A stretch of 64,000 nucleotides of DNA from Gammaproteobacteria bacterium (GTDB lineage Bacteria; Pseudomonadota; Gammaproteobacteria; CBDBNL01; G965229495). The DNA lies in the NCBI GenBank assembly GCA_965229495.1, contig OZ245880.1, positions 2,141,012 through 2,205,011 on the forward strand, read 5' to 3'. How positions within the stretch are numbered: the stretch's first letter is position 1; the number at the start of each line of letters is the position of its first letter. Positions 7,605-59,823 of the stretch are shown piece after piece. The position numbers were made by a program, and so were the translations under genes. The notes beneath the pieces were generated by a model. The model was not told the origin of the DNA and searched no databases. It saw only the letters and a program-made list of their open reading frames with translations.

Positions 7605-7681
7605 AGGCGCGTAGCTCAGTTGGTTAGAGCACTACCTTGACATGGTAGGGGTCGTTGGTTCAAATCCAATCGTGCCTACCA
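7605..7681 (+). tRNA. tRNA-Val (anticodon GAC)
   Basis: AGGCGCGTAGCTCAGTTGGTTAGAGCACTACCTTGACATGGTAGGGGTCGTTGGTTCAAATCCAATCGTGCCTACCA. Cloverleaf with 7-bp acceptor stem (one G-U pair), D-loop GCTCAGTTGGTTAGAGC, anticodon stem CTACC/GGTAG with loop TTGACAT, T-loop GGTTCAAATCC, and encoded 3' CCA. Confidence 0.85.
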
Positions 7682-12300: not shown

Positions 12301-12431
12301 AGCCTATCCCAGCACCACTTATCCAACCACAGATAAACACGGATAAACACAGATTGAAGCTAAAGAGCTCGTGCTTCTATCGAGCAAATAACCCATTCCG
12401 TGCTTTATCAGAAAGCTTCATGACTCCACCT

Positions 12432-13415
12432 TCACTCACCCCGCGCTAAGGCTTGGCGGTATTTTTCCGCGTCCCAGTTGAGGAGTTGGAGCTCGGCTTG
12501 GCTGCCGATGGCGTCGAGGTGCCAGTGGCGGGGTAGGCGGGTGAGGAGGTCATGCAGGCAGCGGAGCATGGCGTGCTGACCGGCAGTAGCGTCGCTGCGA
12601 AGTAAGACGCCGGTGCCCTCTACTACTACGGCGATGCGGTCGCAGCGAGCGCAGTATTCGCTCATGGTCTCAAGCTTGACGCTGGGTAACGCGGGGCCGA
12701 GAAAGACTACGTGATCCGGGTAGTACGAGCCGTGAGTGGCGAGCGGCTGTTGCGCTAGATCAGAATACTGCCATTGCCAGCCAGCGGGTGGCAGCAGGCT
12801 AGGCGCTTCGGGTTCGGTGGTGGTTATCCCCAAAGCCAAAGCGGTCTGTACTTTGTCAACTAACTCTTCAACATCAGCTACGCTCTCCGCCGCGACTATG
12901 AGCCCATGATTGGCTAATAGCCAAACTTGCGGCGCCGCGTTTGCAGCGTGCAATTGCTCGCGCATCGCCCGCGCTAGCTCTAGCCCTGGCTTGTGGTAGG
13001 GCACGAGTTGCCAGTCGAGTCCAGCTAATTTATCCGCCAGCAACTCGCGCCCCTCTGGACTGCTGGCGTGGGCGATGCAGTCTATGGAGTGCAGATGAAC
13101 GACGTAGCGCTGCGGCAGCAGGGCGTGGAAAGTGGTTTCTATCGAGGGCCTGAGCTTACTGGTCTTATCGACTAAAGCGCCCTGGCAATCGCCCGTGCTC
13201 TCGACCTTGTCAAGCTCGGCTAAGACTTGGACAATGTCAACGTCGACGAATATATCCTGCTGCTGCGCTTGCGCCAGTTGGGTGCCGGAGGCTTTCACCG
13301 CCATCACACCGCCCTGCTTTACCGAGCTATTGCCACCCGAAGCCTGGATGAGGTTGGGGTCGGTGCCGTAGCGCGCGCAGAGTGCGAGGAAATCCGTGCC
13401 GAGCGCAACACCCAT
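12432..13415 (-). CDS. Class II aldolase/adducin family protein
   Basis: Internal ATG at 13415 chosen. The longer ORF-track start would overlap the upstream gene and has a low-complexity, Arg-rich N-terminus. Motifs NSSVKQGGVMAVKASG, SIETTFHALL and HLHS (E-T-x-x-H ... H-x-H zinc site) indicate a class II aldolase fold. Confidence 0.7.
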   Translation of the reverse strand: MGVALGTDFLALCARYGTDPNLIQASGGNSSVKQGGVMAVKASGTQLAQAQQQDIFVDVDIVQVLAELDKVESTGDCQGALVDKTSKLRPSIETTFHALLPQRYVVHLHSIDCIAHASSPEGRELLADKLAGLDWQLVPYHKPGLELARAMREQLHAANAAPQVWLLANHGLIVAAESVADVEELVDKVQTALALGITTTEPEAPSLLPPAGWQWQYSDLAQQPLATHGSYYPDHVVFLGPALPSVKLETMSEYCARCDRIAVVVEGTGVLLRSDATAGQHAMLRCLHDLLTRLPRHWHLDAIGSQAELQLLNWDAEKYRQALARGE

Positions 13416-17551: not shown

Positions 17552-17765
17552 TTGATCAACTTAGCCCGCCATGGTCAGTAATCCAGATTGGTAGTATTGC
17601 TCAGAGTTTGGGCGATGGTGGCGGATAGATTAAAGCTTTTATGCTAGATTCACATTGAATAGGCGCAAACAGCCTATAATCGCACTCACCCAATTCGGGC
17701 AAAATCTTGCTCACTAAAGCACATGCAAACCATAGTTCTGTACACACTAGTTGCAAAGCTGCGGA

Positions 17766-18344
17766 ATGCTAAATAAATTCTTTGTGGCGCTAGCGCACAC
17801 GCCCCCTAGTCGGTTTATAGCATTTGTTGTAACGTCGCAAGAGGTTCGCATCGCCCTACGGCGCACGTTATTCTGGGGTGTTATCTGGGTAGGTGTGTTG
17901 TACTTAGCAGCGCTTTTTGATGGCTTGGTTCCAGCTCTAATAGCCGCCTTTGGCGAAAAAAATAGTAGCTTGATTGGTGATATTCGAGCGATAGACTTAT
18001 CGGCGTCGGCGGTTGCTTATAGCTACATCGGCTCTGTCGGAGCCGAATCCGCCATCCGAGCTCACGACGATAAAATTACTAATGATGGCACTACAAAAAT
18101 CACACAATCCAGGCTCTGGAAATTTCTTTGGCTATCACTAGCTGTGGCGCTAGCCTCAGCTTTTGCTGAAATGGTCGGCAAGGCCTACGAGTATCAGTAT
18201 TTATACTTCAGCGCTGAAAAATTAGTCGATATCTTCTCTGATCAAAAGTTTCTGATCATTTTTGGTGTCTGTTCGTTACTCAGAGTACTCATTTACTATA
18301 GAGTCCAAGCGGATATCGTTCCCCAAGCAAAACTATCATCATGA
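17766..18344 (+). CDS. Hypothetical membrane protein (3 predicted TM helices), low-GC
   Basis: ATG at 17766 (the ORF track's 17751 is a TTG). Hydrophobic segments LFWGVIWVGVLYLAALF, LWKFLWLSLAVALASAF and FLIIFGVCSLLRVLIYY. Markedly lower GC than flanks. No recognisable family. Confidence 0.5.
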   Translation: MLNKFFVALAHTPPSRFIAFVVTSQEVRIALRRTLFWGVIWVGVLYLAALFDGLVPALIAAFGEKNSSLIGDIRAIDLSASAVAYSYIGSVGAESAIRAHDDKITNDGTTKITQSRLWKFLWLSLAVALASAFAEMVGKAYEYQYLYFSAEKLVDIFSDQKFLIIFGVCSLLRVLIYYRVQADIVPQAKLSS

Positions 18345-18886: not shown

Positions 18887-19768
18887 TCAGAGTAGTTTTT
18901 GAACTTCGGTGATGTCGATTTGGAGCTGCTGGGCGATGGCGTCCGCGCTAAGGCCTTCTCTCGCCAAAGCCAGAATCTTAACAGCTAGCTGCAGCCCTTC
19001 GGCTCGGCCTTCAACACGCCCCTCGGCGTGTCCTTCGGCGTGTCCCAGTACCCTCTGGGTGCGAACGTTTTCGGCCTCTATTCGGCGGCGCTTTTCTTGA
19101 TATTCGTAGACGGATAGTTCGTCCTGGCTGAGGCTGTGGTAACGCGCGATCTCCAGAGCTTGCAGCAGCGGTGGCTCATTGGCAAAGATATGGGCAAAGT
19201 CTTTATCCTCGCCGCCCTCGGAACCCAAGTACTTCAGGAAAAATATCCATTTATCGACTATGCTTTGGAGTTCGCTTTCGTGCTTGGCAAACTTGGGCAA
19301 TTCGATGAGGCAGAACTCAAAATCTTGGAAGTACCGCTCGTGGGTTACGGTGTCCAGAATCACATGCCGCGATAGGTAGCCGCTATTACTAGGGATCTTA
19401 AAGTTCAGTACGCCAATGAAGTACACCGGCTTGAGCTTGGGGTAATCTACGCCGCGCGACAGCTGCTCAACATAGGCTTTGGAGCTGTAATACAGCGCGC
19501 GCTTATGGAAGGAATGCTGCTGCTCGATTTGCATCTCGACTATGAATTTACGCCCGGATTGGCAAGTGGCGTTGATATCGAGGATGGTTTCCTTGAATTG
19601 CTCGAGCCGCGGCACTTGGTAGGGGTTGGCGAGCTCGACCTCGACCACTTGGCGCTCGCCGCTGAGGCCGAGCACCGAGTTGATAAAGCTGATAAGCACT
19701 TCCTTATGCTGCTCGTTGCCAAAGATGCGCTTGAAGGCAAAATCGATTTGGGGGCTGATGAATTGCAT
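18887..19768 (-). CDS. Rpn-family recombination-promoting nuclease / putative transposase (PD-(D/E)XK, YhgA-like)
   Basis: N-terminus MQFISPQIDFAFKRIFGNEQHKEVLISF is the hallmark of the PDDEXK_1 transposase-like family. C-terminal HAEGHAEGRVEGRAEG repeat is typical of Rpn proteins. Confidence 0.8.
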   Translation of the reverse strand: MQFISPQIDFAFKRIFGNEQHKEVLISFINSVLGLSGERQVVEVELANPYQVPRLEQFKETILDINATCQSGRKFIVEMQIEQQHSFHKRALYYSSKAYVEQLSRGVDYPKLKPVYFIGVLNFKIPSNSGYLSRHVILDTVTHERYFQDFEFCLIELPKFAKHESELQSIVDKWIFFLKYLGSEGGEDKDFAHIFANEPPLLQALEIARYHSLSQDELSVYEYQEKRRRIEAENVRTQRVLGHAEGHAEGRVEGRAEGLQLAVKILALAREGLSADAIAQQLQIDITEVQKLL

Positions 19769-27527: not shown

Positions 27528-28961
27528 ATGCCCCCACCCAATCTAATCATAATAATGTCCGACGAGCACCAGGCTCGCGCCTTGGGTTGCGCTGGTCATG
27601 CTCTGGTGCAAACGCCAAACCTCGACACCCTAGCCGCGCGCGGCACCCGCTGCACGCAAGCCTACACTCCCAGTCCCATCTGCGTCCCCGCGCGCGCCAG
27701 CTTCGCCACCGGCCGCTACCCGCACCAAACTCGCCTCTGGGATAACGCCATGCCCTACGACGGCAGCATCCCCGGTTGGGGACACGTCTTACAGTCCCAA
27801 GGCATAAAAGTCGAAAGCATTGGCAAATTGCACTACCGCTCCGAGCACGACCCCGCTGGCTTTGACGTTGAACACTTACCGATGATGGTAGCTGGCAACG
27901 TCGGCATGGTCTGGGCCAGCATCCGCAAAGAAGACGAACGCATCGTCGGCCCGAAACGTATGCTTGGCGACTACATCGGCCCTGGCAGCAGCACCTACAC
28001 TGATTACGATCAAGCCGTAGTCGAGCGCAGCCGCGCCTGGCTCGCCGAGCACGCCCACGACTCCCAGCCTTGGTGTCTGTACATCGGGCTGGTAGCGCCG
28101 CATTTCCCGCTAGTCGTGCCGCAGCCTTACTTCGATCTCTATCCCGAACACAGCCTCCCCGCAGTCAAGCTCCACCCCGCCCAAGGCCACGCGCGCCATC
28201 CTTGGGTCGAAAAGCAAAACGCCTTCATGGATAGTGAAGCCCTATTCACCGACGCTGCCGAAAGGTCGCGCGCCATGTCGGCCTACTACGGCCTCTGCAC
28301 CTGGCTCGACCACAACGTTGGTCAAATCCTAGCCGTCCTCGAAGACCACGGACTCAGCGACCGCACCACCGTCGTCTACACCTCCGACCACGGCGACAAC
28401 CTCGGCGCGCGCGGGCTCTGGGGCAAATCGAATATGTACGAAGAAAGCGTCGCCGTGCCCATGATCATCGCCGGCCCCGACATCCCCACCGGCGTCTGCA
28501 GCACCCCAGTCAGCCTGCTCGACTTATCGCTCACTATCACCCGTCACTTCGGCGCCGACCTCGCAGCCGCAGCGGACACCCGCGACCTGCGCTCGCTCAT
28601 CGCCAGCGCACCCGAACCTGACCGCGTCATATTCTCCGAATACCACGCCGCTGGCGCCGTCTCTGGTGCCTTCATGCTGCGCAAAGGCCGCTGTAAACTC
28701 ATCCATTATGTTGGCTTTGCCGACGAACTCTTCGACCTCGACAATGACCCCGAAGAACTCCATAACCTCGCTCCCCAACCAGAACTAGCCAACGTCCGCC
28801 AAGACCTCCACGCCGAGCTCCGCCGTATCTGCAACCCAGAGCGCATCAACGACCAAGCCTTCGCCGACCAAGCCGCCCTCATCGAGCGCCACGGCGGGCG
28901 AGACGCCGCCCTCAAGCTCGGCGCACCAGGCGCCACACCTGCTCCAAAACTAAAGCCATGA
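27528..28961 (+). CDS. Sulfatase (formylglycine-dependent arylsulfatase family)
   Basis: IIMSDEH metal site and the sulfatase signature C-V-P-A-R (SPICVPARASFATGRY) for the formylglycine modification. Confidence 0.85.
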   Translation: MPPPNLIIIMSDEHQARALGCAGHALVQTPNLDTLAARGTRCTQAYTPSPICVPARASFATGRYPHQTRLWDNAMPYDGSIPGWGHVLQSQGIKVESIGKLHYRSEHDPAGFDVEHLPMMVAGNVGMVWASIRKEDERIVGPKRMLGDYIGPGSSTYTDYDQAVVERSRAWLAEHAHDSQPWCLYIGLVAPHFPLVVPQPYFDLYPEHSLPAVKLHPAQGHARHPWVEKQNAFMDSEALFTDAAERSRAMSAYYGLCTWLDHNVGQILAVLEDHGLSDRTTVVYTSDHGDNLGARGLWGKSNMYEESVAVPMIIAGPDIPTGVCSTPVSLLDLSLTITRHFGADLAAAADTRDLRSLIASAPEPDRVIFSEYHAAGAVSGAFMLRKGRCKLIHYVGFADELFDLDNDPEELHNLAPQPELANVRQDLHAELRRICNPERINDQAFADQAALIERHGGRDAALKLGAPGATPAPKLKP

Positions 28962-29806
28962 AGCTCACCATTCTCGGCTCCGGCTCCCCCGAAGCCTACG
29001 CCCGCCGCGCCTCCAGCGGCTACCTCGTCAGCGTCGGCTCTGAGCGCATCCTGTTCGATTGCGGCGGCGGCGTTTTCGATAACCTGCTGCGCGCTGGCCT
29101 CGCCCCCTCGAACATAACCCACCTGGTCTTCAGCCACCTACACTCCGACCACATGCTCGACTACCCGCGACTGGTGCACGCCGCCTGGGACGAAGGCGCC
29201 CCGCCGCTCAAAGTCTACGGCCCCGCGCCTATAGCGCAAATCACCGACGCTTACTTCTCCAAACACGGCGTCCTCGCGCACGATCTGCGCGCGCGCACCG
29301 AGCTCGCGCCCAGTCAGGAAGTATGGCTGCAGCGCGGCGGCTCGCTGCCACGCCCGTGGCCGCAGACGCAAGTAAGCGAAATCGCCGCTGGCGATACCAT
29401 AAACGGCGACGGCTGGAGCATCCAATCCTGCCGAGCGCCGCACGCCCAGCCATTGCTCGAATGCCTGGCCTTCGCCATTGAAGCCCAAGGTAAAAAGTTA
29501 GTCTATTCGGGCGACGCTGGCCTCTGCTGGCAAATCGAAGAGCTGGCGCACAACGCCGACCTGCTATTACACTGGTGCTATCGGCTCGACGGCGAGCCAG
29601 CCTCCGAAGCCATGGCCGCCATGACGCCAACCCCCAGCCAAATCGGCGCGCTCGCCCGCCGCGCTGGAGTGCGCGCGCTCGTCCTCACCCACTTCCGCAA
29701 ACACATGGACACCCCCGCCAACCACACCGCCGCCCAACAAAACGCTACCACCGCCTTCGGCCACCCAGTCGCCATCGCTGAAGACCTGCAAAGCATCGAA
29801 CTCTGA
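28958..29806 (+). CDS. MBL-fold metallo-hydrolase (RNase Z-like subfamily)
   Basis: HLHSDH motif. ATGA overlap with the sulfatase gene implies coupling. 282 aa. Confidence 0.75.
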   Translation: MKLTILGSGSPEAYARRASSGYLVSVGSERILFDCGGGVFDNLLRAGLAPSNITHLVFSHLHSDHMLDYPRLVHAAWDEGAPPLKVYGPAPIAQITDAYFSKHGVLAHDLRARTELAPSQEVWLQRGGSLPRPWPQTQVSEIAAGDTINGDGWSIQSCRAPHAQPLLECLAFAIEAQGKKLVYSGDAGLCWQIEELAHNADLLLHWCYRLDGEPASEAMAAMTPTPSQIGALARRAGVRALVLTHFRKHMDTPANHTAAQQNATTAFGHPVAIAEDLQSIEL

Positions 29807-29844: not shown

Positions 29845-31143
29845 TCAATAAATGACCCTAGGTTCGTCAAGCCTCTGATCGCCAATACGCAGCGCTTGTG
29901 CCAGGCGCGTTTGCGCCCGCTGCAAGCGCGCGCTATCTGCGGCGTGAATAGTCAACAGCACCTCGCCGGCGGTCACCGGCTCGGCTAGCTTTTTGTGTAT
30001 CTCTAAGCCGACGCTATAGTCGATGACGTCGCTCGGCGTAGCGCGACCACCGCCCAACTCGACTATCGCCCAACCCAATTGCTCAGTCGCCACGCTCTGC
30101 AGATAACCATCTTGAGGAGCACAGACTTCGCCAACCAGCGGCGCCGCAGGCAGATAGCGCGCACTGTCCTCCAAAAGATCGCTCGGCCCGCCAAGCTCCC
30201 TGACCATACGCGCAAAAAACTCAGCAGCTCGACCATTAACCAGGCTTGTCCGCAGCCTGGCACCAGCCTCGGCTTGGTCGGAACAAACACCAGCCATAAC
30301 CAGCGCCGCGCTGCCCAGAGCCAAGCACACCTCCAGCAACCGCGCCTCAGCTTGCTCCGGATTATGGAATATAGCGATCACCTCCTTGAGCTCCAAGCTA
30401 TTGCCAGCAGCGTAACCGAGCGCTTGGTTCATATCGCTGATAATGGCGCGCGCGTTCAGTCCAGCTCGACTCGCCGTCGACTCTATGGCTTGCGCCAACT
30501 CCCGCGCCGCCACCATATCGCGGCAAAAGGCACCGTTACCGACCTTCACGTCCATCACCAAATGCTGCAAACCCGCTGCCAGCTTCTTGCTCAAGATGGA
30601 AGCGGTGATCAGAGCCGTACTCTCAACGCTACCGCTAATATCGCGCACGGCGTACATCCGTCTATCCGCAGGCGCCAATTCCGGCGTCGCCCCCACTATC
30701 GCCACCGAGCACTTACGCACGCAGCGCTGCAATTGCTCCAGGCTCACTTGACTACAGTAGCCTGGGATAGCGTCCATCTTGTCCAGAGTTCCGCCGGTAT
30801 GCCCCAAGCCGCGCCCGGATATCATCGGCACCGCCAGCCCGCAAGCAGCCAACCATGGCGCTAACAACAGACTCACCTTATCGCCAACACCACCCGAGGA
30901 ATGCTTATCGACCACAGGCTTATCAATATCATCCCAAGCACAGGTCGCACCGCTCTGCACCATCGCCGTAGTCAAAGCAGCGGACTCGGCGCTCGTCATA
31001 CCCCGACAGCAAACCGCCATAGTAAAAGCCGCGATATGAGCGTCGGTAGCGCTACCATCGACCACAGCCGCGACCAACTCGCCTATCTGCTCATCCCTGA
31101 GCGTCTCGCCATCGCGCTTAGCGCGTAGTATTTCTTGGAGCAT
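29845..31143 (-). CDS. deoA: Thymidine phosphorylase
   Basis: 432 aa with HSSGGVGDK and GLGHTGGTLDK pyrimidine-nucleoside phosphorylase motifs. Confidence 0.9.
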   Translation of the reverse strand: MLQEILRAKRDGETLRDEQIGELVAAVVDGSATDAHIAAFTMAVCCRGMTSAESAALTTAMVQSGATCAWDDIDKPVVDKHSSGGVGDKVSLLLAPWLAACGLAVPMISGRGLGHTGGTLDKMDAIPGYCSQVSLEQLQRCVRKCSVAIVGATPELAPADRRMYAVRDISGSVESTALITASILSKKLAAGLQHLVMDVKVGNGAFCRDMVAARELAQAIESTASRAGLNARAIISDMNQALGYAAGNSLELKEVIAIFHNPEQAEARLLEVCLALGSAALVMAGVCSDQAEAGARLRTSLVNGRAAEFFARMVRELGGPSDLLEDSARYLPAAPLVGEVCAPQDGYLQSVATEQLGWAIVELGGGRATPSDVIDYSVGLEIHKKLAEPVTAGEVLLTIHAADSARLQRAQTRLAQALRIGDQRLDEPRVIY

Positions 31144-31319
31144 GGAATTTTTACCGTAAGCTAAGTGCTATAACGCCTGTAATTTGAGCCGCAGACGCCA
31201 TTGTAAACACCAGCACGACAATTTACCCGCGCTAGAATTGCCGTGCTCGTTTGACCACCTCTTGAGCGCTGGCTATCATTACTAGCTCAGTCAGCGCACA
31301 ATCCACTTCGCACCGGGGC

Positions 31320-32969
31320 ATGGCCAAAGACACCAACAAACCCACATACCTCAACGACCACTGGACTCTCGACGATGGCCTTGGCTTTGGCGCCACCGCC
31401 GAGCAACTGGCGCGGGTAGCCTTGCAAGCGCAGCCGCCGTTCACGGTAGCGCTCACCGGCAAATGGGGCGCGGGCAAAACCAGCGTCTTGCGCCAAGCCT
31501 TCGCTACCCTCGGTGGTGAGCCCATAGCCCAAGCTTTGCCTTTTGGCGAGCCATTGAGCGATAGAGCCTTCAACCAAAACATTCGGGAGATGTGGAAGAA
31601 GCTATCATACTTTGGCACCAAGTCGGGCGATAAATCTAAGCTAACAGAAGAGCAGCTCGAATTGGGCAATTTAGCCGAGCGCTGCCTGTGCGTTTGGTAT
31701 TCGCCCTGGCAACACCAGCAAGCCGATAACCCGCTATTGCCATTGCTGCTAGAGATTAAGAAGCAATACAGTATCTGGGCGAAGTCAAAGAAAATAACTT
31801 CTGATGTTAGTAAGAGTAGCGGACGGGTAGGCCTAACTCTGCTGGAGAAAGTTATCGACGCTAGCATAAGCATAGCCGCTCGTAATCAGGTACAGCTAGC
31901 CTCGGGCACCAGCGCTGAAGTTGCCCAAGCTTGGCAAGGCAACAAATCTGAACTGGAGCAACTTAGCGATGGTCAGCGCTTTCACCTGATATTCGAGGAA
32001 GCGATAGAAACTTTATTGCGCAGCAGAAAGGGTAGAGCAAAGTTAGACGAAGGTGCCCGCCTAATAATATTCATCGACGACCTCGACCGCTGCGAGGAGA
32101 GCGTTATCGTGCAATTGCTCGAAAGCATTAAGCTTTATTTGCATAGCCAGCGCTGCGTCTTCATCCTCGGCATAGACCCTGACGCCGTGCTCGGTGCCCT
32201 AAAGCGACATTGGAAAGAGCGCTCGGAGCAGAGCAACGCCGAGTACTTGGAAAAGCTAGTGCAAGCGCAGCTTGAAGTGCCGCAGCCAGCGATACAGCTA
32301 ATACGAAATTTGATAGAGACGCAACTTAGTGATCACGACATACCCATAGAAGCGCCAGCTACCGAGGAAACTAATGGCGACAAGGATCAAGCCAAAGACA
32401 CCGACAACCAAATAGCTGACTTACCCACCATGCTCGAGGAGTTGCTGGAACCCAACCCGCGCAAAATCAAGAATTTTCTCAACAGTCTCAGTGGTCAATG
32501 GCACTTACTTCCCCGAGGCGAGCGCCCCGAGCACGCTCACCTATTCGCGCTCTTCCACTATTTGCGGCTGTATCATCGCCCAGTCTGGCGTTTGCTTAGT
32601 CATCAAAATTGGGTGCTGGAACTGCTGTATCGAGTTTTAATCAAATCCGACGCAAAGCTTGGTCTTATTCCCGATGATTACCCAAGTTTCTCAGACGAAC
32701 AAGCCATAGCCAGCGAGATGCTAGCGCGCGCTTTCAGCCACGTGCTAGCCGATAACAGTGATGCTGCCACTGCCGAGCGCCAGCACCGCAATATGCCTTT
32801 GGAAAAGGCGGTGCTATTATTCACTGAGAGGCTGGACCGTAAGCGTTCGGATCAATGCTTTATCAAATATCTGCGTAAGCTGGTGCTATCCGATGATGCC
32901 GAAAGCAGCAAAGCTGCCAAACTACTCTTGCAACGAATGAATCAAGCCCGCGATGATAGCCCAGCGTAG
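31320..32969 (+). CDS. KAP-family P-loop NTPase
   Basis: Walker A GKWGAGKTS, then after about 200 residues the KAP-specific Walker B IIFIDDLDRCEE. WYSPWQHQ segment after the P-loop. No predicted TM insert. Lower GC than the flanking deoA/upp. Confidence 0.8.
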   Translation: MAKDTNKPTYLNDHWTLDDGLGFGATAEQLARVALQAQPPFTVALTGKWGAGKTSVLRQAFATLGGEPIAQALPFGEPLSDRAFNQNIREMWKKLSYFGTKSGDKSKLTEEQLELGNLAERCLCVWYSPWQHQQADNPLLPLLLEIKKQYSIWAKSKKITSDVSKSSGRVGLTLLEKVIDASISIAARNQVQLASGTSAEVAQAWQGNKSELEQLSDGQRFHLIFEEAIETLLRSRKGRAKLDEGARLIIFIDDLDRCEESVIVQLLESIKLYLHSQRCVFILGIDPDAVLGALKRHWKERSEQSNAEYLEKLVQAQLEVPQPAIQLIRNLIETQLSDHDIPIEAPATEETNGDKDQAKDTDNQIADLPTMLEELLEPNPRKIKNFLNSLSGQWHLLPRGERPEHAHLFALFHYLRLYHRPVWRLLSHQNWVLELLYRVLIKSDAKLGLIPDDYPSFSDEQAIASEMLARAFSHVLADNSDAATAERQHRNMPLEKAVLLFTERLDRKRSDQCFIKYLRKLVLSDDAESSKAAKLLLQRMNQARDDSPA

Positions 32970-35900
32970 CGCCTACGAGCATAACCTCTTTCTACTCGAA
33001 TTAGCGCGCTGCGAGCGCTGGCTGCGGCGGCGCCACGGTCGTTTATTTGGCTTGCTCGAAGCCGACGAAGACGAAGTCGAAAGATACCCCATCAGCTTGC
33101 GGCATATATTCGTGCCCATGCGCCTCGACACCAAGGACTTAGCCGACGAGGAGGTTGGCAAAGGCCAAGCTCTAGATGCAGAGCAACCACCGGGGCAAGA
33201 CGCTTGGGAAGTGCTCGCCGAGCACAGCTTCGCAATCATCTCTGGCCGCCCGGGTAGCGGCAAGAGCACGCTGATGCAAGCCATAGTGCTCGAGCTTTGT
33301 GGCGAGCGCCCAAGCGAGCTACGCAATAAGCTTTACAAAGATGCGCCTGGAGTAACTGTGCTACCCATCGTCTTGCGCGAGCTGGAAAATATCGATCAAA
33401 TACAAGACTGGCGCCAACTGCTCGACTCTTGGTGGGCGCTAATTGAGCGTGATTCTAACGCAGATAATTATCCACTATCGATTCTAGAACTGCGAGAGCG
33501 CTTAGAGCAAAGGGAGCTTGAGCGCAACTATACAGTATTGCTATTGCTCGACGGCATTGACGAAGTTGGTAGCAATGCGGCGCGTGAGCGCTTGGGTGAT
33601 ATGGCTGAGCAAATACACGATGAACTCGGCTACCGTGTAATAATCACTGGCCGCCCGGTTGGCGTGCAAGATTTGCGTATTACCAAACCGTCGAACAGAT
33701 TACCTATCAAACTACCCCACAAGTTGAGCGATCAACCACCAGCGCAGACTTTCTACCTACAACCGCTGATCGGCGCGCAAATTACCTTATTTATAGACAA
33801 GTGGCTAAACGCGCGCCCCGATTGGCGCCGCGAAAAAGCGCATTTGCAGCGTAGTTTTAACGAAGCGCTGCATAGCGCGCGCGGCGAGCATTTGCTCAAG
33901 CTGGTGCGGCGACCAATATTCCTGACGCTGATGGCGCTGGTGCACTGCTCCTCCAAGCAAATGCCCGACGGTCGCGCCCAGCTCTACGCCAAAATTATCG
34001 ACCTGTATCTCAACCGCCAAGAAAAGCACCGCCGCTTACGCCTCCGCAAAGGCGATGGTTCTCTCCCCAATTGGCGCGACTCGGAGAAACGCGCCGTGCT
34101 CGGCTATATCGCTTGGCGCAGCCAGATGCAACGTGGCAGACAAGAAAATAGCTCTGATAAAAAAGACAGCTTTATCTGGCGGCGCGATGAATTATTGACG
34201 GTGATCGAGCAACAGCTCTCCAGCCGCAAATATGGTCGCTTTAGCTCAATCAAAGTAGAGGACGCAGACGACTTACTCAATTACTTCTTGCAGCCCGCCG
34301 GTTTGCTGATAGAGCCCGCCGAGCAGCGCTTGCAATTCTCGCACCTGAGCTTTCAAGAATATCTTTGCGCTGACTTTATCAATACCACTCTAAGCGGCGG
34401 CGACTTGCGTTATGCTTTCGAGGGACATTTGCTACCGAATCTTGATCGACCAGGCTGGGGCGAGGTTGGCTTGCTACTACTGGCGATTTTGCAAGCGGCA
34501 GACAATAGCAGTCATCTGCGCGCTATGGCGTGGCTCGATCCCAGTAATGCTACTCAAGCGCAACTGCTGGTAAAAGCGCTCAGCGGTGGTGAGCTTGGCT
34601 TTCGTGCTGAGGAAAACGCTGCCGACCTTGCCGACTGGGCGTCGCTAGCGCTGGCTTGCTGTCTCTTGCACCCGAGAAGAGAATTGGGTTCAGAGCTAGC
34701 GCAAAATCCACAATTGCGTGCGCCCGCACTGAAGCTACTGGAGCAGCTATTCGGACTAGAGCCCAGCGCTTGTATGGAGTATTTAGGCAAGCACATCGCT
34801 GAGCACACACCTTGGGGCATGAATAAGAGTGACGTTAAACGCATCGCTCGGTCTATAGCTAAGCGTTGGAGCAATCCCAAGGACGACAATAGTTGGGATG
34901 CCGGTTTTGGCGCCTATGAAGCTCGCGCCCACGCGCTGCTGGCGCTACTCAATTCCAGCGCTTGGTTAGCTCCTGAGGAGAAAGATCCTTACCTGCCTAT
35001 CGCCGAATCTGGCTGGCAGGAGCGCTTGGCGGCTTGGCTGCGGCAAGTAGTTTCCACTACAGGCGATCCCCTTTGGCAGCGCGACGAGGATAAATTGCCA
35101 GAGATAACTTATGCAGCGTTAGAGCTCGACACACTTATACCCGCAACCGGTTCGCTCTATAAAGCCACGCTTGAGCGCCTGCCGCTTGATGCCCTGCTGC
35201 TGCAGGGTGAAGCCTATGACGACTCTGACTATGGTGAATTCAGCCAGCCTACTATATTGCTAGCAATACAAGCGCGAGAAGTCCCTCCAGTACGCAGCCG
35301 CCTCGCGCTCGTATTCTATCAAGCGTTGCTACTCATCGAGCACTGCAGGCAAGATGCAATTTTTCTGGACTTGTTGCAGTTGCGGTCGTGGGCATTGGCA
35401 TGGTCGCGGGCGCAGGAGCGGTCGCGGACGCAGGCGTGGTCGTGGACGCGGGCGCGGGCGCGGTCGTGGGCGCAGGCGCGGGCGCGGGCGCGGTCGTGGG
35501 CGCAGGCGCAGGAGCGGGCGCGGTCGCAGGAGCAGGAGTGGGAGCAGGAGCAGGATTGGGAGTGGGGGCGGATGCTGGCGCAGGAGCAGGAGTTGGAGCG
35601 GATGGTGGCGCAGATCCAGGTGCGGGAGCTATTAGAGGATACTACTTTTAGCTCGGCGCTAACAGTAGCTACCAGACAGAGCCTAGAAAAAGCTGTGCAA
35701 ATAGATGATGACAAAATAAGCGATGAGCAACTAGCTGTCTGGGTGCCAGTGCTAGAAAACTACTGCTACCGCTGGGCGGCGCTGGATTGGTTTCGCGAGC
35801 AGAGTGAAGATGTGGGCTTGGCGCAGCGGCGCGGGATTAGGGATAAGCAGCCATTGCCCGCCGAGCTTGGATTGTTTGACGCTGAGGGTATGCCGCTACC

Positions 35901-36180
35901 GACGCCGCAGCGCGCTAACGTCGAGCGCTTGCTGGAATGGCTGGAAGACGACGAGCGTGTGATAGCTTTTGGCGCTGCTGACGCTAGCGCCGAAGAGTTA
36001 GAAATCATCCGCGCCGACCTCGACATTCTTCGTAATCAACCCTGGTCGCCCGCCAACTTCGTCCGCGCCATCCTCGCCGACTGGCCAGCAGACCAACCTA
36101 CCATGGACTGCAGCCTTGCCGCCGCCGACGCCGAACTCGGCAAACAATCCGAGCTGCTGCTAACAGCAGTCAAAAGCTAA
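32953..36180 (+). CDS. NACHT/STAND-family NTPase (NLR-like), 1075 aa
   Basis: Walker A IISGRPGSGKSTL, Walker B LLLLDGIDEV and a downstream helical/winged-helix region. Overlaps the KAP gene by 17 nt. Has a repeat-encoded low-complexity linker and an uncharacterised ~180-aa C-terminal domain. Confidence 0.8.
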   Translation: MIAQRSAYEHNLFLLELARCERWLRRRHGRLFGLLEADEDEVERYPISLRHIFVPMRLDTKDLADEEVGKGQALDAEQPPGQDAWEVLAEHSFAIISGRPGSGKSTLMQAIVLELCGERPSELRNKLYKDAPGVTVLPIVLRELENIDQIQDWRQLLDSWWALIERDSNADNYPLSILELRERLEQRELERNYTVLLLLDGIDEVGSNAARERLGDMAEQIHDELGYRVIITGRPVGVQDLRITKPSNRLPIKLPHKLSDQPPAQTFYLQPLIGAQITLFIDKWLNARPDWRREKAHLQRSFNEALHSARGEHLLKLVRRPIFLTLMALVHCSSKQMPDGRAQLYAKIIDLYLNRQEKHRRLRLRKGDGSLPNWRDSEKRAVLGYIAWRSQMQRGRQENSSDKKDSFIWRRDELLTVIEQQLSSRKYGRFSSIKVEDADDLLNYFLQPAGLLIEPAEQRLQFSHLSFQEYLCADFINTTLSGGDLRYAFEGHLLPNLDRPGWGEVGLLLLAILQAADNSSHLRAMAWLDPSNATQAQLLVKALSGGELGFRAEENAADLADWASLALACCLLHPRRELGSELAQNPQLRAPALKLLEQLFGLEPSACMEYLGKHIAEHTPWGMNKSDVKRIARSIAKRWSNPKDDNSWDAGFGAYEARAHALLALLNSSAWLAPEEKDPYLPIAESGWQERLAAWLRQVVSTTGDPLWQRDEDKLPEITYAALELDTLIPATGSLYKATLERLPLDALLLQGEAYDDSDYGEFSQPTILLAIQAREVPPVRSRLALVFYQALLLIEHCRQDAIFLDLLQLRSWALAWSRAQERSRTQAWSWTRARARSWAQARARARSWAQAQERARSQEQEWEQEQDWEWGRMLAQEQELERMVAQIQVRELLEDTTFSSALTVATRQSLEKAVQIDDDKISDEQLAVWVPVLENYCYRWAALDWFREQSEDVGLAQRRGIRDKQPLPAELGLFDAEGMPLPTPQRANVERLLEWLEDDERVIAFGAADASAEELEIIRADLDILRNQPWSPANFVRAILADWPADQPTMDCSLAAADAELGKQSELLLTAVKS
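35385..35615 (+). repeat. Intragenic GC-rich tandem repeat (30-bp unit GCGGGCGCGGGCGCGGTCGTGGGCGCAGGC and degenerate copies)
   Basis: Visible direct tandem copies. Encodes in-frame SWAQARARAR / EQEWEQEQDWEW low-complexity protein sequence. Produces spurious RG- and GA-rich ORFs in other frames. Confidence 0.8.
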
Positions 36181-36272: not shown

Positions 36273-36926
36273 CTATTTGGTGCCGAAGAGGCGGTCGCCG
36301 GCGTCGCCGAGGCCCGGGACTATGTAGGCGTTGGCGTTGAGGTGGTGGTCGAGCGCGGCGGTGTAGATGGCGATGTCGGGGTGTTGGGCGCGGACGGCTT
36401 GTATGCCCTCGGGAGCTGCTACCAGGCACATGATGCGCGTGTGCTCGCGCGCGACTCCGTGCTCTTGCAGTATATCAAGGGCGCAATTCATGGAGTTGCC
36501 AGTGGCGAGCATGGGGTCTACTACGATAAAGCTGCGATTGCTGGGGTCGGGGAGTTTGACCATGTAGCGTATGGCTTGCTTGGTCTCTGGCTCACGATAA
36601 ACGCCAATATGACCAATGCGCGCTGCTGGCATTAATTCCAGCAAGCCCTCCGCCATGCCGAGACCAGCGCGCAATATCGGCACTACGGCGACTTTCTTAC
36701 CTTCGATTATCGGCGCGGTGTCTATGGTCGCCAGCGGCGTTTGGATTTGCTTGTGCGTGGTCGGCAGGTCGCGGGTAATTTCATAACCCATCAGCAGGGC
36801 GATTTCGTGCAGCAGGCGGCGGAAGGTTTTGGTGGAGGTGCCGATGTCGCGCATGTGCGTGAGCTTATGCGCTATTAGCGGGTGGTCGGCTATGTATAGT
36901 TGGGGAAAATCGGGGTGCTGGCGCAT
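36273..36926 (-). CDS. upp: Uracil phosphoribosyltransferase
   Basis: 217 aa with the PRPP-binding region [11 protein letters not shown] and the C-terminal [17 protein letters not shown]. Confidence 0.9.
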
Positions 36927-56004: not shown

Positions 56005-56237
56005 GATGTAATTGGGTGGGTTAGGTAGAGGGGGCAGAATAAACTCGAATACGCTGTCGGAAAATTAATATTTGCCAAGAGCATATATTTAGCTTAATAG
56101 CAAGTTAATTCAGTGATATAACAGTTTAACGCAGAGCTGCCGAGCGCTATTTTTTATACACTCGGGCAATTTTGTTATTATTCCTGACCGAGCTTTGTGT
56201 TATTATCTTTGCAATTTCAAAATTGATGGTTGACACC

Positions 56238-56666
56238 ATGGCAGCAAGAAAAAAGATCGATTTAACCGAACTAAGCGTAGATGAATTGCAGAGCTTGCAG
56301 GAAAAGCTCAACAGTCATCTTGAAAACCTCAAGCAGATAATGCGCGTGCGCGAGGAAGTTATCAAAAAAGTCCTCAAGAATTCCGACGTTAAAGCTATTT
56401 GCAAGCACTACAACTTCGACATCAATTATTTATTCAATCCCCCTAGCGACCAGGACGTCGCCGCCAGCGGCGGCAAAGTCAAAAAGCGCGCCAGCTCCAG
56501 GCGCATGGCTTCGGTCGAAGTGCTGAAACCCAAGAAGAAGCGGGTAGTATTGCCCAAATACCGCCTACCCACCGGCGAGACTTGGTCGGGCCGCGGCTTG
56601 ATGCCAAAAATATTCACGCGCTACATGGAGCGCGGCGGCAAATTGGAGGATGTCGCGATTAGGTGA
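56238..56666 (+). CDS. H-NS-family nucleoid-associated DNA-binding protein
   Basis: N-terminal coiled-coil (LQSLQEKLNSHLENLKQIMRVREE) and C-terminal DNA-binding motif TWSGRGLMPK (compare H-NS TWTGQGRTP). AT-rich upstream region. Confidence 0.75.
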   Translation: MAARKKIDLTELSVDELQSLQEKLNSHLENLKQIMRVREEVIKKVLKNSDVKAICKHYNFDINYLFNPPSDQDVAASGGKVKKRASSRRMASVEVLKPKKKRVVLPKYRLPTGETWSGRGLMPKIFTRYMERGGKLEDVAIR

Positions 56667-58782: not shown

Positions 58783-59823
58783 ATGAAAATCAATGTTCTA
58801 CCCCCCCCCCCCCCCCCCCCCCCCCGCGCGCATAAATTACTGATTATAGTAAATATTTTTGCGTTTTTGTTATCTTCTTGCTCCGATGGCGACGATGACA
58901 CTTTACTAAGCCCGCTACCCAACGACTTCACGGCAACAGCAAGCGATAGCCAGGTAACTCTGAGTTGGACGCAACACCCAGAAGCGACCTACAGCCTTTA
59001 CCACAGTAGCGACTCCAGTTGTGATATGAGCAACTACAGCCTCTGCAGCGATGGGGCTATGTTCACTAGTAAATCCTCGGGCTTCGTCGACGCTGGCTTG
59101 ACCAACGGCACTACTTATTACTACTGGATCGAATCCATACTCGATGGCATTACTTTTTTTGATGAGCAAGCTATCAGCGCTACTCCCAGAGCTGATAGCA
59201 GTATTGATTTAAGCAATGGCTTAATAGCTCATTATGAATTTGAAGGCAATGTCAATGACAGTAGTGGTAACGGTAATGACGGAGAGGTATTTGGCGACAT
59301 TAGTTACATTGATGGAGTAATAGGCCAAGCCATACATTTTGGTAATAGTAACGTCTACATCGCTATTAAAAGTAACTTCACGCTAGACGACTTCAGCATC
59401 GCTTTTTATGGGAAAGTCGATGCGCAAAGTAGCGCTAAGATTAATTTGTTGCAAGCGAATCAGAGTCACTCAGATAATATCTTCGGTCTTGCTTACGATA
59501 GCGACTTTGCCTATTTACTGCACAACAGCCAGACTACCAATTCACAGCACTATTACGATCTGTTAGTTACTGAATGGGCGAATTTTGTTTTGCAGCCAAA
59601 TGGTGTCGGTGGTTTTGATATTTATCTCGATGGTAATAAGGCGATAACTTTTTACCTTGCTCTAGAGGAAATGCTATTCGAGTATATAGTTCTGGCTCAG
59701 GGCTGTTTCGGGGAATGTTTTACTAGCGAGCAAAACTTAACTGGTAGCCTTGACGATTTGCGCATCTACAACCGCACCCTCAACGCAGAAGAAATACAAG
59801 CGCTTCGGATCGCCGAGTTGTAA
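58783..59823 (+). CDS. Lipoprotein with FN3-like and LamG/concanavalin-like jelly-roll domain (low-GC)
   Basis: Signal peptide with lipobox LLSSC. N-terminal poly-Pro encoded by a C25 tract. VTLSWT ... TYYYWI FN3-like segment, then LamG-like region. The last codons are supplied by the REP element. Confidence 0.6.
   Translation: MKINVLPPPPPPPPRAHKLLIIVNIFAFLLSSCSDGDDDTLLSPLPNDFTATASDSQVTLSWTQHPEATYSLYHSSDSSCDMSNYSLCSDGAMFTSKSSGFVDAGLTNGTTYYYWIESILDGITFFDEQAISATPRADSSIDLSNGLIAHYEFEGNVNDSSGNGNDGEVFGDISYIDGVIGQAIHFGNSNVYIAIKSNFTLDDFSIAFYGKVDAQSSAKINLLQANQSHSDNIFGLAYDSDFAYLLHNSQTTNSQHYYDLLVTEWANFVLQPNGVGGFDIYLDGNKAITFYLALEEMLFEYIVLAQGCFGECFTSEQNLTGSLDDLRIYNRTLNAEEIQALRIAEL
58801..58825 (+). repeat. 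Homopolymeric C25 tract inside the coding sequence
   Basis: 25 consecutive C directly counted (58801-58825), in-frame (PPPPPPPP) within the signal-peptide region. Confidence 0.9.

Follow-up and report, generated by a model that had tools for sequence, protein, structure and literature searches.

In a 64,000-nucleotide stretch of Gammaproteobacteria bacterium contig OZ245880.1 (assembly GCA_965229495.1, positions 2,141,012 to 2,205,011 of the forward strand; hereafter the window), a gene for a KAP-family NTPase and a gene for a NACHT-family NTPase form a cassette between deoA and upp. We found that the association of the two genes is conserved as a module and is not due to chance, and that the KAP-NACHT pair is, as far as could be searched, previously undescribed. 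The family identities of both proteins, their obligate linkage, purifying selection on both genes and a mosaic pattern of hypervariability that affects only the central part of the NACHT protein are established. With moderate confidence, we propose that the pair is a self-contained, horizontally mobile two-gene conflict module of the nucleotide-binding leucine-rich-repeat receptor (NLR) type, most likely acting against phages through abortive infection. The cassette comprises the following elements.

31320-32969, + strand: gene 1, KAP, an open reading frame (ORF) of 549 amino acids for a soluble protein
32953-36180, + strand: gene 2, NACHT, an ORF of 1075 amino acids
32953-32969, + strand: 17-nt overlap of the genes, from the NACHT start to the KAP stop

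The 17-nt overlap suggests translational coupling of the two genes, which the initial annotation had taken for a two-gene unit; co-occurrence and co-divergence of their homologs support that view. Full-length NACHT homologs number about 90 (30-76% identity) and strong KAP homologs more than 120, with many contigs apparently common to the two match lists. In a linkage scan of the 43 best-scoring NACHT loci, taking one genome per species, 37 loci carried a KAP homolog directly upstream on the same strand. These paired loci represent at least seven phyla and span Gammaproteobacteria, Desulfobacterales, Acidobacteriota, Bacteroidota, Campylobacterota and a Clostridium. The six unpaired loci comprised one 1.6-kb fragment and NACHTs of at most 28% identity, and no KAP gene was found beside more distant NACHTs (leucine-rich-repeat-type, cyanobacterial or myxobacterial). 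Among the 30 loci in which both ORFs had been called, the junction was a 4-, 8- or 17-nt overlap or a gap of at most 21 nt in 25. Conversely, when two KAP homologs absent from the NACHT list served as the starting point, a NACHT homolog (about 1030-1070 amino acids) with an 8-nt overlap was again found. Identities of KAP and NACHT partners were closely correlated (Pearson r = 0.98 over 351 comparisons, and 0.98 also with the close clade removed), although any two genes resident in one genome would show part of this correlation; with a distribution that crosses phyla, it shows that KAP and NACHT move as a pair. No third gene was conserved beside the pair. Among the hosts are Chromatiales, Methylococcales, Thiotrichales, Alteromonadaceae and Zetaproteobacteria; others belong to Desulfobacterales (Desulfonema DENIS_1216/1217), Electrothrix, Thermoanaerobaculia, Holophagales, Kapaibacterium and Bacteroidales, as well as to SAR324, Sulfurovum, Haliangium and a Clostridium.

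Both family assignments, which had been made from Walker motifs, were borne out by profile and structure comparisons. The KAP_NTPase profile (Pfam PF07693) matched gene 1 at residues 27-391 with 115.1 bits against a cutoff of 20, and the Walker A motif G47-K-W-G-A-G-K-T-S55 (nt 31458-31484) and Walker B motif I249-I-F-I-D-D-L-D-R-C258 (nt 32064-32093) are invariant in 53 homologs. The AlphaFold2 (AF2) model places a helical insert between the two motifs (residues 60-245), and a helical C-terminal domain occupies residues ~395-549, where residues 395-549 returned nothing meaningful in Pfam at E <= 5. The transmembrane insert reported as missing is indeed absent: no transmembrane-like segment was found, the highest 19-residue Kyte-Doolittle mean being 1.08. 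Transmembrane helices are typical of the KAP family and not universal, PifA being without them. The closest solved fold to the KAP protein is RdrA of RADAR, at an identity of only 13-14%, and PDB sequence profiles gave only weak PtuA and RdrA matches.

The NACHT protein is divided as follows.

32953-33222, + strand: N-terminal extension, residues 1-90, with a long helix (7-29) and short elements in the AF2 model
33223-34392, + strand: NACHT module, residues ~91-480, with Walker motifs, sensor-1-like motif and winged helix
34393-35352, + strand: alpha-solenoid-like helical region, residues ~481-800, with AF2 helices at 485-797
35402-35629, + strand: degenerate hexanucleotide tandem array, residues ~817-893, detected by Tandem Repeats Finder (TRF) with periods 6, 18 and 30
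35728-36180, + strand: C-terminal alpha/beta domain, residues ~926-1075, delimited by conservation, plus the stop codon (36178-36180)

The NACHT profile (Pfam PF05729) scored 30.9 bits against a cutoff of 26.7, a narrow margin, and precomputed PF05729 matches are present on most NACHT homologs. Walker A reads GRPGSGKS (nt 33244-33267) and Walker B LLLLDGIDE (nt 33538-33564). The family signature D[GAS]hDE is present as D200-G-I-D-E204, of which D200, G201, D203 and E204 are invariant in 60 sequences; in the sensor-1-like motif T232, R234 and P235 are invariant and G233 nearly so, and the winged-helix motif is H464-LSFQEYLCA. The closest solved folds to the module of nucleotide-binding, helical and winged-helix domains were those of NLRP3 and NOD2, whereas PDB sequence profiles gave P-loop-level matches only. 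The absence of an N-terminal effector was likewise supported: the ~90 residues before the NTPase domain contain no Pfam match at E <= 5 and no recognisable effector domain, and they are highly conserved among close relatives, defined here as loci whose DeoA, Upp or KAP, where the locus carries that gene, is 80-96% identical to that of the window. At the same threshold, residues 1-92, 260-480, 480-800 and 926-1075 gave nothing meaningful in Pfam. The C-terminal domain, initially described as uncharacterised, has no Pfam match, and bounds of ~926-1075 fit it better than the original 895-1075. Residues W946, P1033 and W1044 of this domain are invariant and P967-L-P969, G979 and W996 nearly invariant, with no obvious catalytic constellation. 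A phmmer search of 1.84 billion proteins found the domain in 70 representatives, always at the C-terminus of the KAP-linked NACHT family or its fragments.

Both genes are under purifying selection, with dN/dS ratios of 0.11-0.23 for the two genes and 0.11-0.19 for KAP alone. Among relatives, KAP is 80-96% identical. The NACHT gene is a mosaic within the close clade, in which different relatives share different blocks: codons 1-350 and 951-1075 retain a nucleotide identity of 0.85-0.97, whereas codons about 600-950 fall into divergent allele classes with only 0.35-0.6, and dS is saturated in this hypervariable block. Between the window and two related loci, L082 and L084 (homologous loci carry our own L numbers), nucleotide identity in the helical region is 0.43-0.59. 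Recombinational, allele-like variation of this kind is expected of a specificity determinant, and the helical region from residue ~600 is a candidate specificity or sensor region.

Low-complexity sequence occupies NACHT residues ~800-900, where the initial annotation had proposed a repeat-encoded linker; the TRF array at 35402-35629 substantiates it, and it proves to be the most unusual part of the cassette. In the window, the array codes for a period-2 pattern in which a small residue (S/A) alternates with R, W, Q or L. Homologs from at least six orders, in different phyla, carry the repeat unit TCGCGG (Ser-Arg) or TCGCTG (Ser-Leu), in loci L009-L013, L018, L030, L081, L083 and L093. Their arrays have 21-48 copies at 83-94% match, with one weaker 30-copy array at 68% match, and in L093 about 37 copies form an almost pure (SL)n run. 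The arrays always lie at 0.75-0.79 of the NACHT protein length. A period-2 score of at least 0.8 over 30 residues was reached by 19 of 76 full-length NACHT homologs, compared with none of 169 neighbouring proteins at a score of even 0.7. No such array is present in the more distant subclade of KAP-linked NACHTs (about 27-33% identity).

Conservation across phyla extends beyond the amino-acid pattern to the DNA hexanucleotide unit itself, and yet the length and sequence of the array are wholly different even between close relatives, with blastn homology breaking within it. The window array is a decayed counterpart of the (TCGCGG/TCGCTG)n arrays in homologs, in which TCG has changed to GCG (Ala) and CTG to TGG or CAG with the alternation of small residues and R/W/Q/L retained. 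Such arrays may be kept for in-frame variation in tether length, as a recombination junction, or for the poly(SR/SL) property itself. Our literature search found nothing on a (TCGCGG/TCGCTG)n coding array. In two metagenome-assembled genome (MAG) loci, L014 (about 12403-12639) and L017 (about 12333), the C-terminal domain is out of frame with the N-terminal part of NACHT; the break lies at or near the array and may reflect misassembly of the repeat, a pseudogene or phase variation. Three ORFs of 87-131 amino acids across the window array (35319-35714, - strand; 35354-35635, + strand; 35388-35651, + strand) were rejected as genes and attributed to the hexanucleotide periodicity; they lie in other frames of the array, and their translations are rich in Gly-Arg, Gly-Ala and Asp-Arg-Ala.

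Around the two genes, whose ORFs, overlap and position between deoA and upp on the opposite strand were confirmed, the window contains these features.

29845-31143, - strand: thymidine phosphorylase (deoA), flank before KAP, with Pfam Glycos_transf_3/PYNP_C
31160-31319, + strand: non-coding leader of the cassette, recognised by homology with relatives whose upstream genes differ
36273-36926, - strand: upp, flank after NACHT, with Pfam UPRTase

Beyond upp lie a DUF1820 gene and then a lipid A acyltransferase gene. Cassette homology starts at 31160 in comparison with L084 or at 31223 with L083, and a sigma-70-like promoter match, TTGACC-17-TATCAT at 31251-31279, falls inside this conserved leader as a consensus match only. 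Adjoining deoA is a metallo-beta-lactamase-fold gene (28958-29806, + strand), with an ortholog at 9360-10208 of L092; the precomputed annotation of the ortholog is PF23023 (Anti-Pycsar Apyc1) plus Lactamase_B, but Lactamase_B_2 and Lactamase_B were the only matches when we scanned the protein from the window.

Each of the six close relatives that we examined carries the cassette, and five different pairs of flanks were seen: deoA and upp (the window and L092), deoA and an insertion sequence (IS), upp and an IS, ABC and SnoaL, and hisD and ABC. Downstream, these loci stop being homologous at 36163-36174, shortly before the stop codon of NACHT, and upstream they do so 100-160 nt before the KAP start. 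In two sister species (DeoA 74-75% identical), MatE or RNase T genes come after deoA, no cassette was found beside it, and upp lies elsewhere. Because deoA and upp are not adjacent there, no empty deoA-upp site exists, making a clean comparison of insertion and empty site impossible. A search for direct or inverted repeats, att sites and target-site duplications at the cassette ends gave only short, chance-level matches, so that no transposition or integration mechanism can be named. The pair is thus a discrete unit that occupies sites prone to rearrangement, close to IS elements in relatives, rather than a syntenic core locus, since its flanks differ in close relatives and it is not beside deoA in the sister species.

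The initial annotation had also read AT-richer stretches as a sign that the cassette was acquired as an island. GC content is indeed lower in the cassette (0.50-0.56 in sliding windows, against 0.58-0.66 in the flanks), but the shift is only modest: GC at third codon positions (GC3) is 0.587 for KAP and 0.617 for NACHT (z = -1.4 and -1.0), against 0.690 +/- 0.075 for the other genes of the window, and composition was accordingly set aside as a sign of recent transfer. Together with the presence of the cassette in all six relatives and the lack of an empty deoA-upp site, this leaves a recent island acquisition unsupported, and the cassette is probably not a recent arrival in the lineage of the window.

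In close relatives, the cassette lies beside DDE transposases and several tandem AAA-ATPase_like/PDDEXK_9 paralogs (PF09820/PF08011), and the same rearrangement-prone neighbourhood, which is absent from the window, holds a SnoaL and flavin-reductase pair (L082 14885-17535; L083 14844-16184 and 4008-7087; L084 17057-21623). Identity of DeoA homologs to the window steps from 96% to about 75% and then to at most 62%, named proteobacterial matches reaching at most 57%, and many related strains occur within one ENA sample (ERZ25074195).

Elsewhere in the window, a gene for a 197-amino-acid protein with no Pfam match (17751-18344, + strand) has the second-lowest GC of any gene (0.456; GC3 z = -3.2) and adjoins a PD-(D/E)XK transposase-family gene (18887-19768, - strand; PDDEXK_2, 192 bits); the two may be a small foreign islet. 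An H-NS-like protein with a Histone_HNS C-terminal domain (56172-56666, + strand; GC 0.483) and, 2 kb downstream, a ConA-like lectin/Laminin_G_3 gene (58783-59823, + strand; GC 0.447, GC3 z = -2.8) make up a compositionally atypical patch. The sole Rfam match in the window is a tRNA gene (7605-7678, + strand; 68.4 bits).

An immune role for the pair is suggested by the fact that the closest characterised relatives returned for each of the two proteins are immune components. In the mechanism we propose, the NACHT protein would act as the receptor, with the strain-variable helical region (about 600-925) and the (SR/SL)n tether setting recognition. Ligand binding would release autoinhibition and lead to nucleotide-dependent oligomerisation of the NACHT module. 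Since NACHT has no effector domain, its N-terminal helix, its C-terminal domain or both would engage the co-translated KAP protein, a putative RdrA-like, ring-forming AAA+-type ATPase serving as obligate partner or executor. The output of KAP might be, for example, uncontrolled ATP turnover or the remodelling of a complex from host or phage; an effector role for KAP is a guess. More tentatively, and as an idea that we regard as possible rather than probable, the pair may represent a new class of bacterial NLR, in which an effector-less NACHT receptor signals via a dedicated RdrA-like KAP in a sensor-and-helper arrangement. Receptor diversity would then arise from the exchange of helical regions by cassette-like recombination, together with an in-frame microsatellite prone to slippage, (TCGCGG/TCGCTG)n, which codes for the tether and is kept across phyla.

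Several points weigh against a two-gene antiphage module. We infer its defence role, its signalling direction and its biochemical output, and the results constrain neither signalling from NACHT to KAP nor from KAP to NACHT. No toxic or enzymatic effector domain was detected in either protein with Pfam, leaving the output step speculative. The family has no members in the plasmid or phage collections searched. By family counts only, the 97 immediate neighbours at 26 loci were mostly housekeeping genes, with three SNF2 helicases and four PIN proteins as the defence-type families, a weak signal; the Methylomonas pair, for instance, sits between cytochrome oxidase and ammonium-transporter genes.

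A two-gene conflict module could also work with its roles reversed or shared, KAP being the sensor, or a dedicated co-sensor or chaperone by which the trigger is presented, and the oligomerised NACHT providing the output through its C-terminal domain. RdrA, the closest KAP fold, is the regulatory and sensing ATPase of RADAR and not a toxin (PMC9994260), and bNACHT25 is reported to need the chaperone DnaJ for sensing (PMC12169576); the C-terminal domain, highly conserved and family-specific, would fit a constant output or interaction domain. We nevertheless judge this arrangement unlikely, since strain-level hypervariability lies in NACHT and not in KAP (80-96% identical), pointing to NACHT as the specificity determinant, and since invariance in the C-terminal domain is limited to W, P and G and does not extend to other residues of catalytic type, R and Q being nearly invariant at most. 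Quite unlikely, in our estimation, is a signalling role outside defence, in stress, cell fate or the kin or self recognition of aggregate-forming or filamentous bacteria, with the variable region as an allorecognition determinant. The housekeeping neighbourhoods described above would suit such a role, as would the many filamentous, aggregate-forming or symbiotic hosts (Desulfonema, Electrothrix, Thiothrix, Leucothrix, Chromatiaceae and Ca. Kentrum). An enrichment of STAND systems in multicellular bacteria has been proposed (PMC7159879, PMC8195603), and in fungi NACHT proteins mediate heterokaryon incompatibility. However, the pair is also found in unicellular Methylomonas, Alteromonadaceae, Sulfurovum and Clostridium sp. 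LS, neither protein contains a DNA-binding or signalling output domain that we could find, and the characterised relatives from profile, fold and literature searches are antiphage proteins.

The last reading considered, in which the cassette has no function in the cell at present and is a selfish or decaying passenger whose genes are adjacent simply through co-transfer, appears very improbable. The decay of the window array relative to perfect arrays in relatives and the out-of-frame C-terminal domains of the MAG loci L014 and L017 would agree with it, but both ORFs are intact, the NTPase motifs are invariant, dN/dS is 0.1-0.23, and linkage and co-divergence are kept across phyla.

If the pair is indeed an immune system, it would represent a new bacterial NLR architecture, in which an effector-less receptor depends on a separate KAP ATPase, and would offer a testable bacterial model of sensor/helper logic between two NTPases. 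KAP ATPases, which remain poorly understood mechanistically even in PifA, Qat and RADAR, would thereby gain a defined partner and a mechanistic context. The (TCGCKG)n coding microsatellite and the allele swapping in the central region suggest a means of innate-receptor diversification that requires neither diversity-generating retroelements nor large structural repeats. At about 5 kb, and with a promoter region of its own, the module is small enough for direct cloning and testing.

As the initial annotation had supposed, no named system or paper describing the KAP-NACHT pair was found: it is not in PADLOC v2, and the literature on KAP together with NACHT yielded only papers naming the two separately. 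Bacterial NACHT proteins defend against phage and are rarely found in operons (Kibby et al. 2022/2023); in the parts of that paper and its supplements available to us, KAP goes unmentioned and neither an operon partner nor a family member appears. The protein described here resembles bNACHT proteins in its NACHT module with D[GAS]hDE signature, winged helix and NLRP3-/NOD2-like fold, in the variable helical region that follows the module and in its many multicellular-type hosts. Unlike them, it has no effector domain; a KAP ATPase gene is strictly conserved upstream of its own, a microsatellite codes for its (SR/SL)n segment, and its C-terminal domain is specific to the family. NACHT family members gave P-loop-level matches only to PADLOC models, and the protein does not qualify as an Avs, a type recognised by a match to Avs profiles together with a nuclease, protease or other effector domain and a tetratricopeptide-repeat-like sensor.

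KAP-type ATPases are known in defence from RdrA of RADAR (PMC9994260), PifA, Qat and validated single-gene KAP systems. Unlike RADAR, the cassette has no adjacent RdrB adenosine deaminase, and no RdrA model was among the PADLOC matches; RdrA has about 800-900 amino acids against 549 in KAP, to which it is 13-14% identical, and the partner of KAP is itself an NTPase. All 53 KAP family members gave remote matches to the PDC-S20, QatA and PifA models of PADLOC (best 1e-29). The window KAP scored 98.9 bits (E = 1.2e-28) against PDC-S20 with partial coverage, at model positions 67-373 of 464, and the PDC-S20 scores of all 53 members were similarly low (best 3.9e-29), a pattern suggesting a subfamily that is related to PDC-S20 yet separate from it. 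NCBIfam QatA gave 92 bits against a cutoff of 600, and the cassette, which has no QatB, QatC or QatD, is not a Qat system. With PifA, QatA, PDC-S20 and EF_KAP, the KAP protein has in common the P-loop domain and, in the case of PifA, the lack of transmembrane helices, whereas the remoteness of the matches, the missing QatBCD, the absence of an EF_KAP-type fused C-terminal region and the NACHT partner set it apart.

In some STAND ternary conflict systems of multicellular bacteria, which carry effector-associated domains (EADs), KAP can displace the STAND NTPase (Kaur, Burroughs, Aravind 2020/2021). These systems are likewise NTPase-centred and diversifying, with a similar host range, but there KAP replaces STAND within one EAD-bearing protein, whereas here the two are separate, coexisting partners, and no EAD, Death-like or effector genes were linked to the pair. 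Paired sensor and helper NLRs are known from plants and animals, for example NAIP-NLRC4 and the NRC networks. In the KAP-NACHT pair the second partner is a KAP ATPase and not a STAND protein, and no homology to the eukaryotic pairs is implied; the likeness would be one of organisation, with two co-encoded, putatively oligomerising NTPases of which one is variable and may act as the sensor, and the other is conserved and may act as helper or executor.

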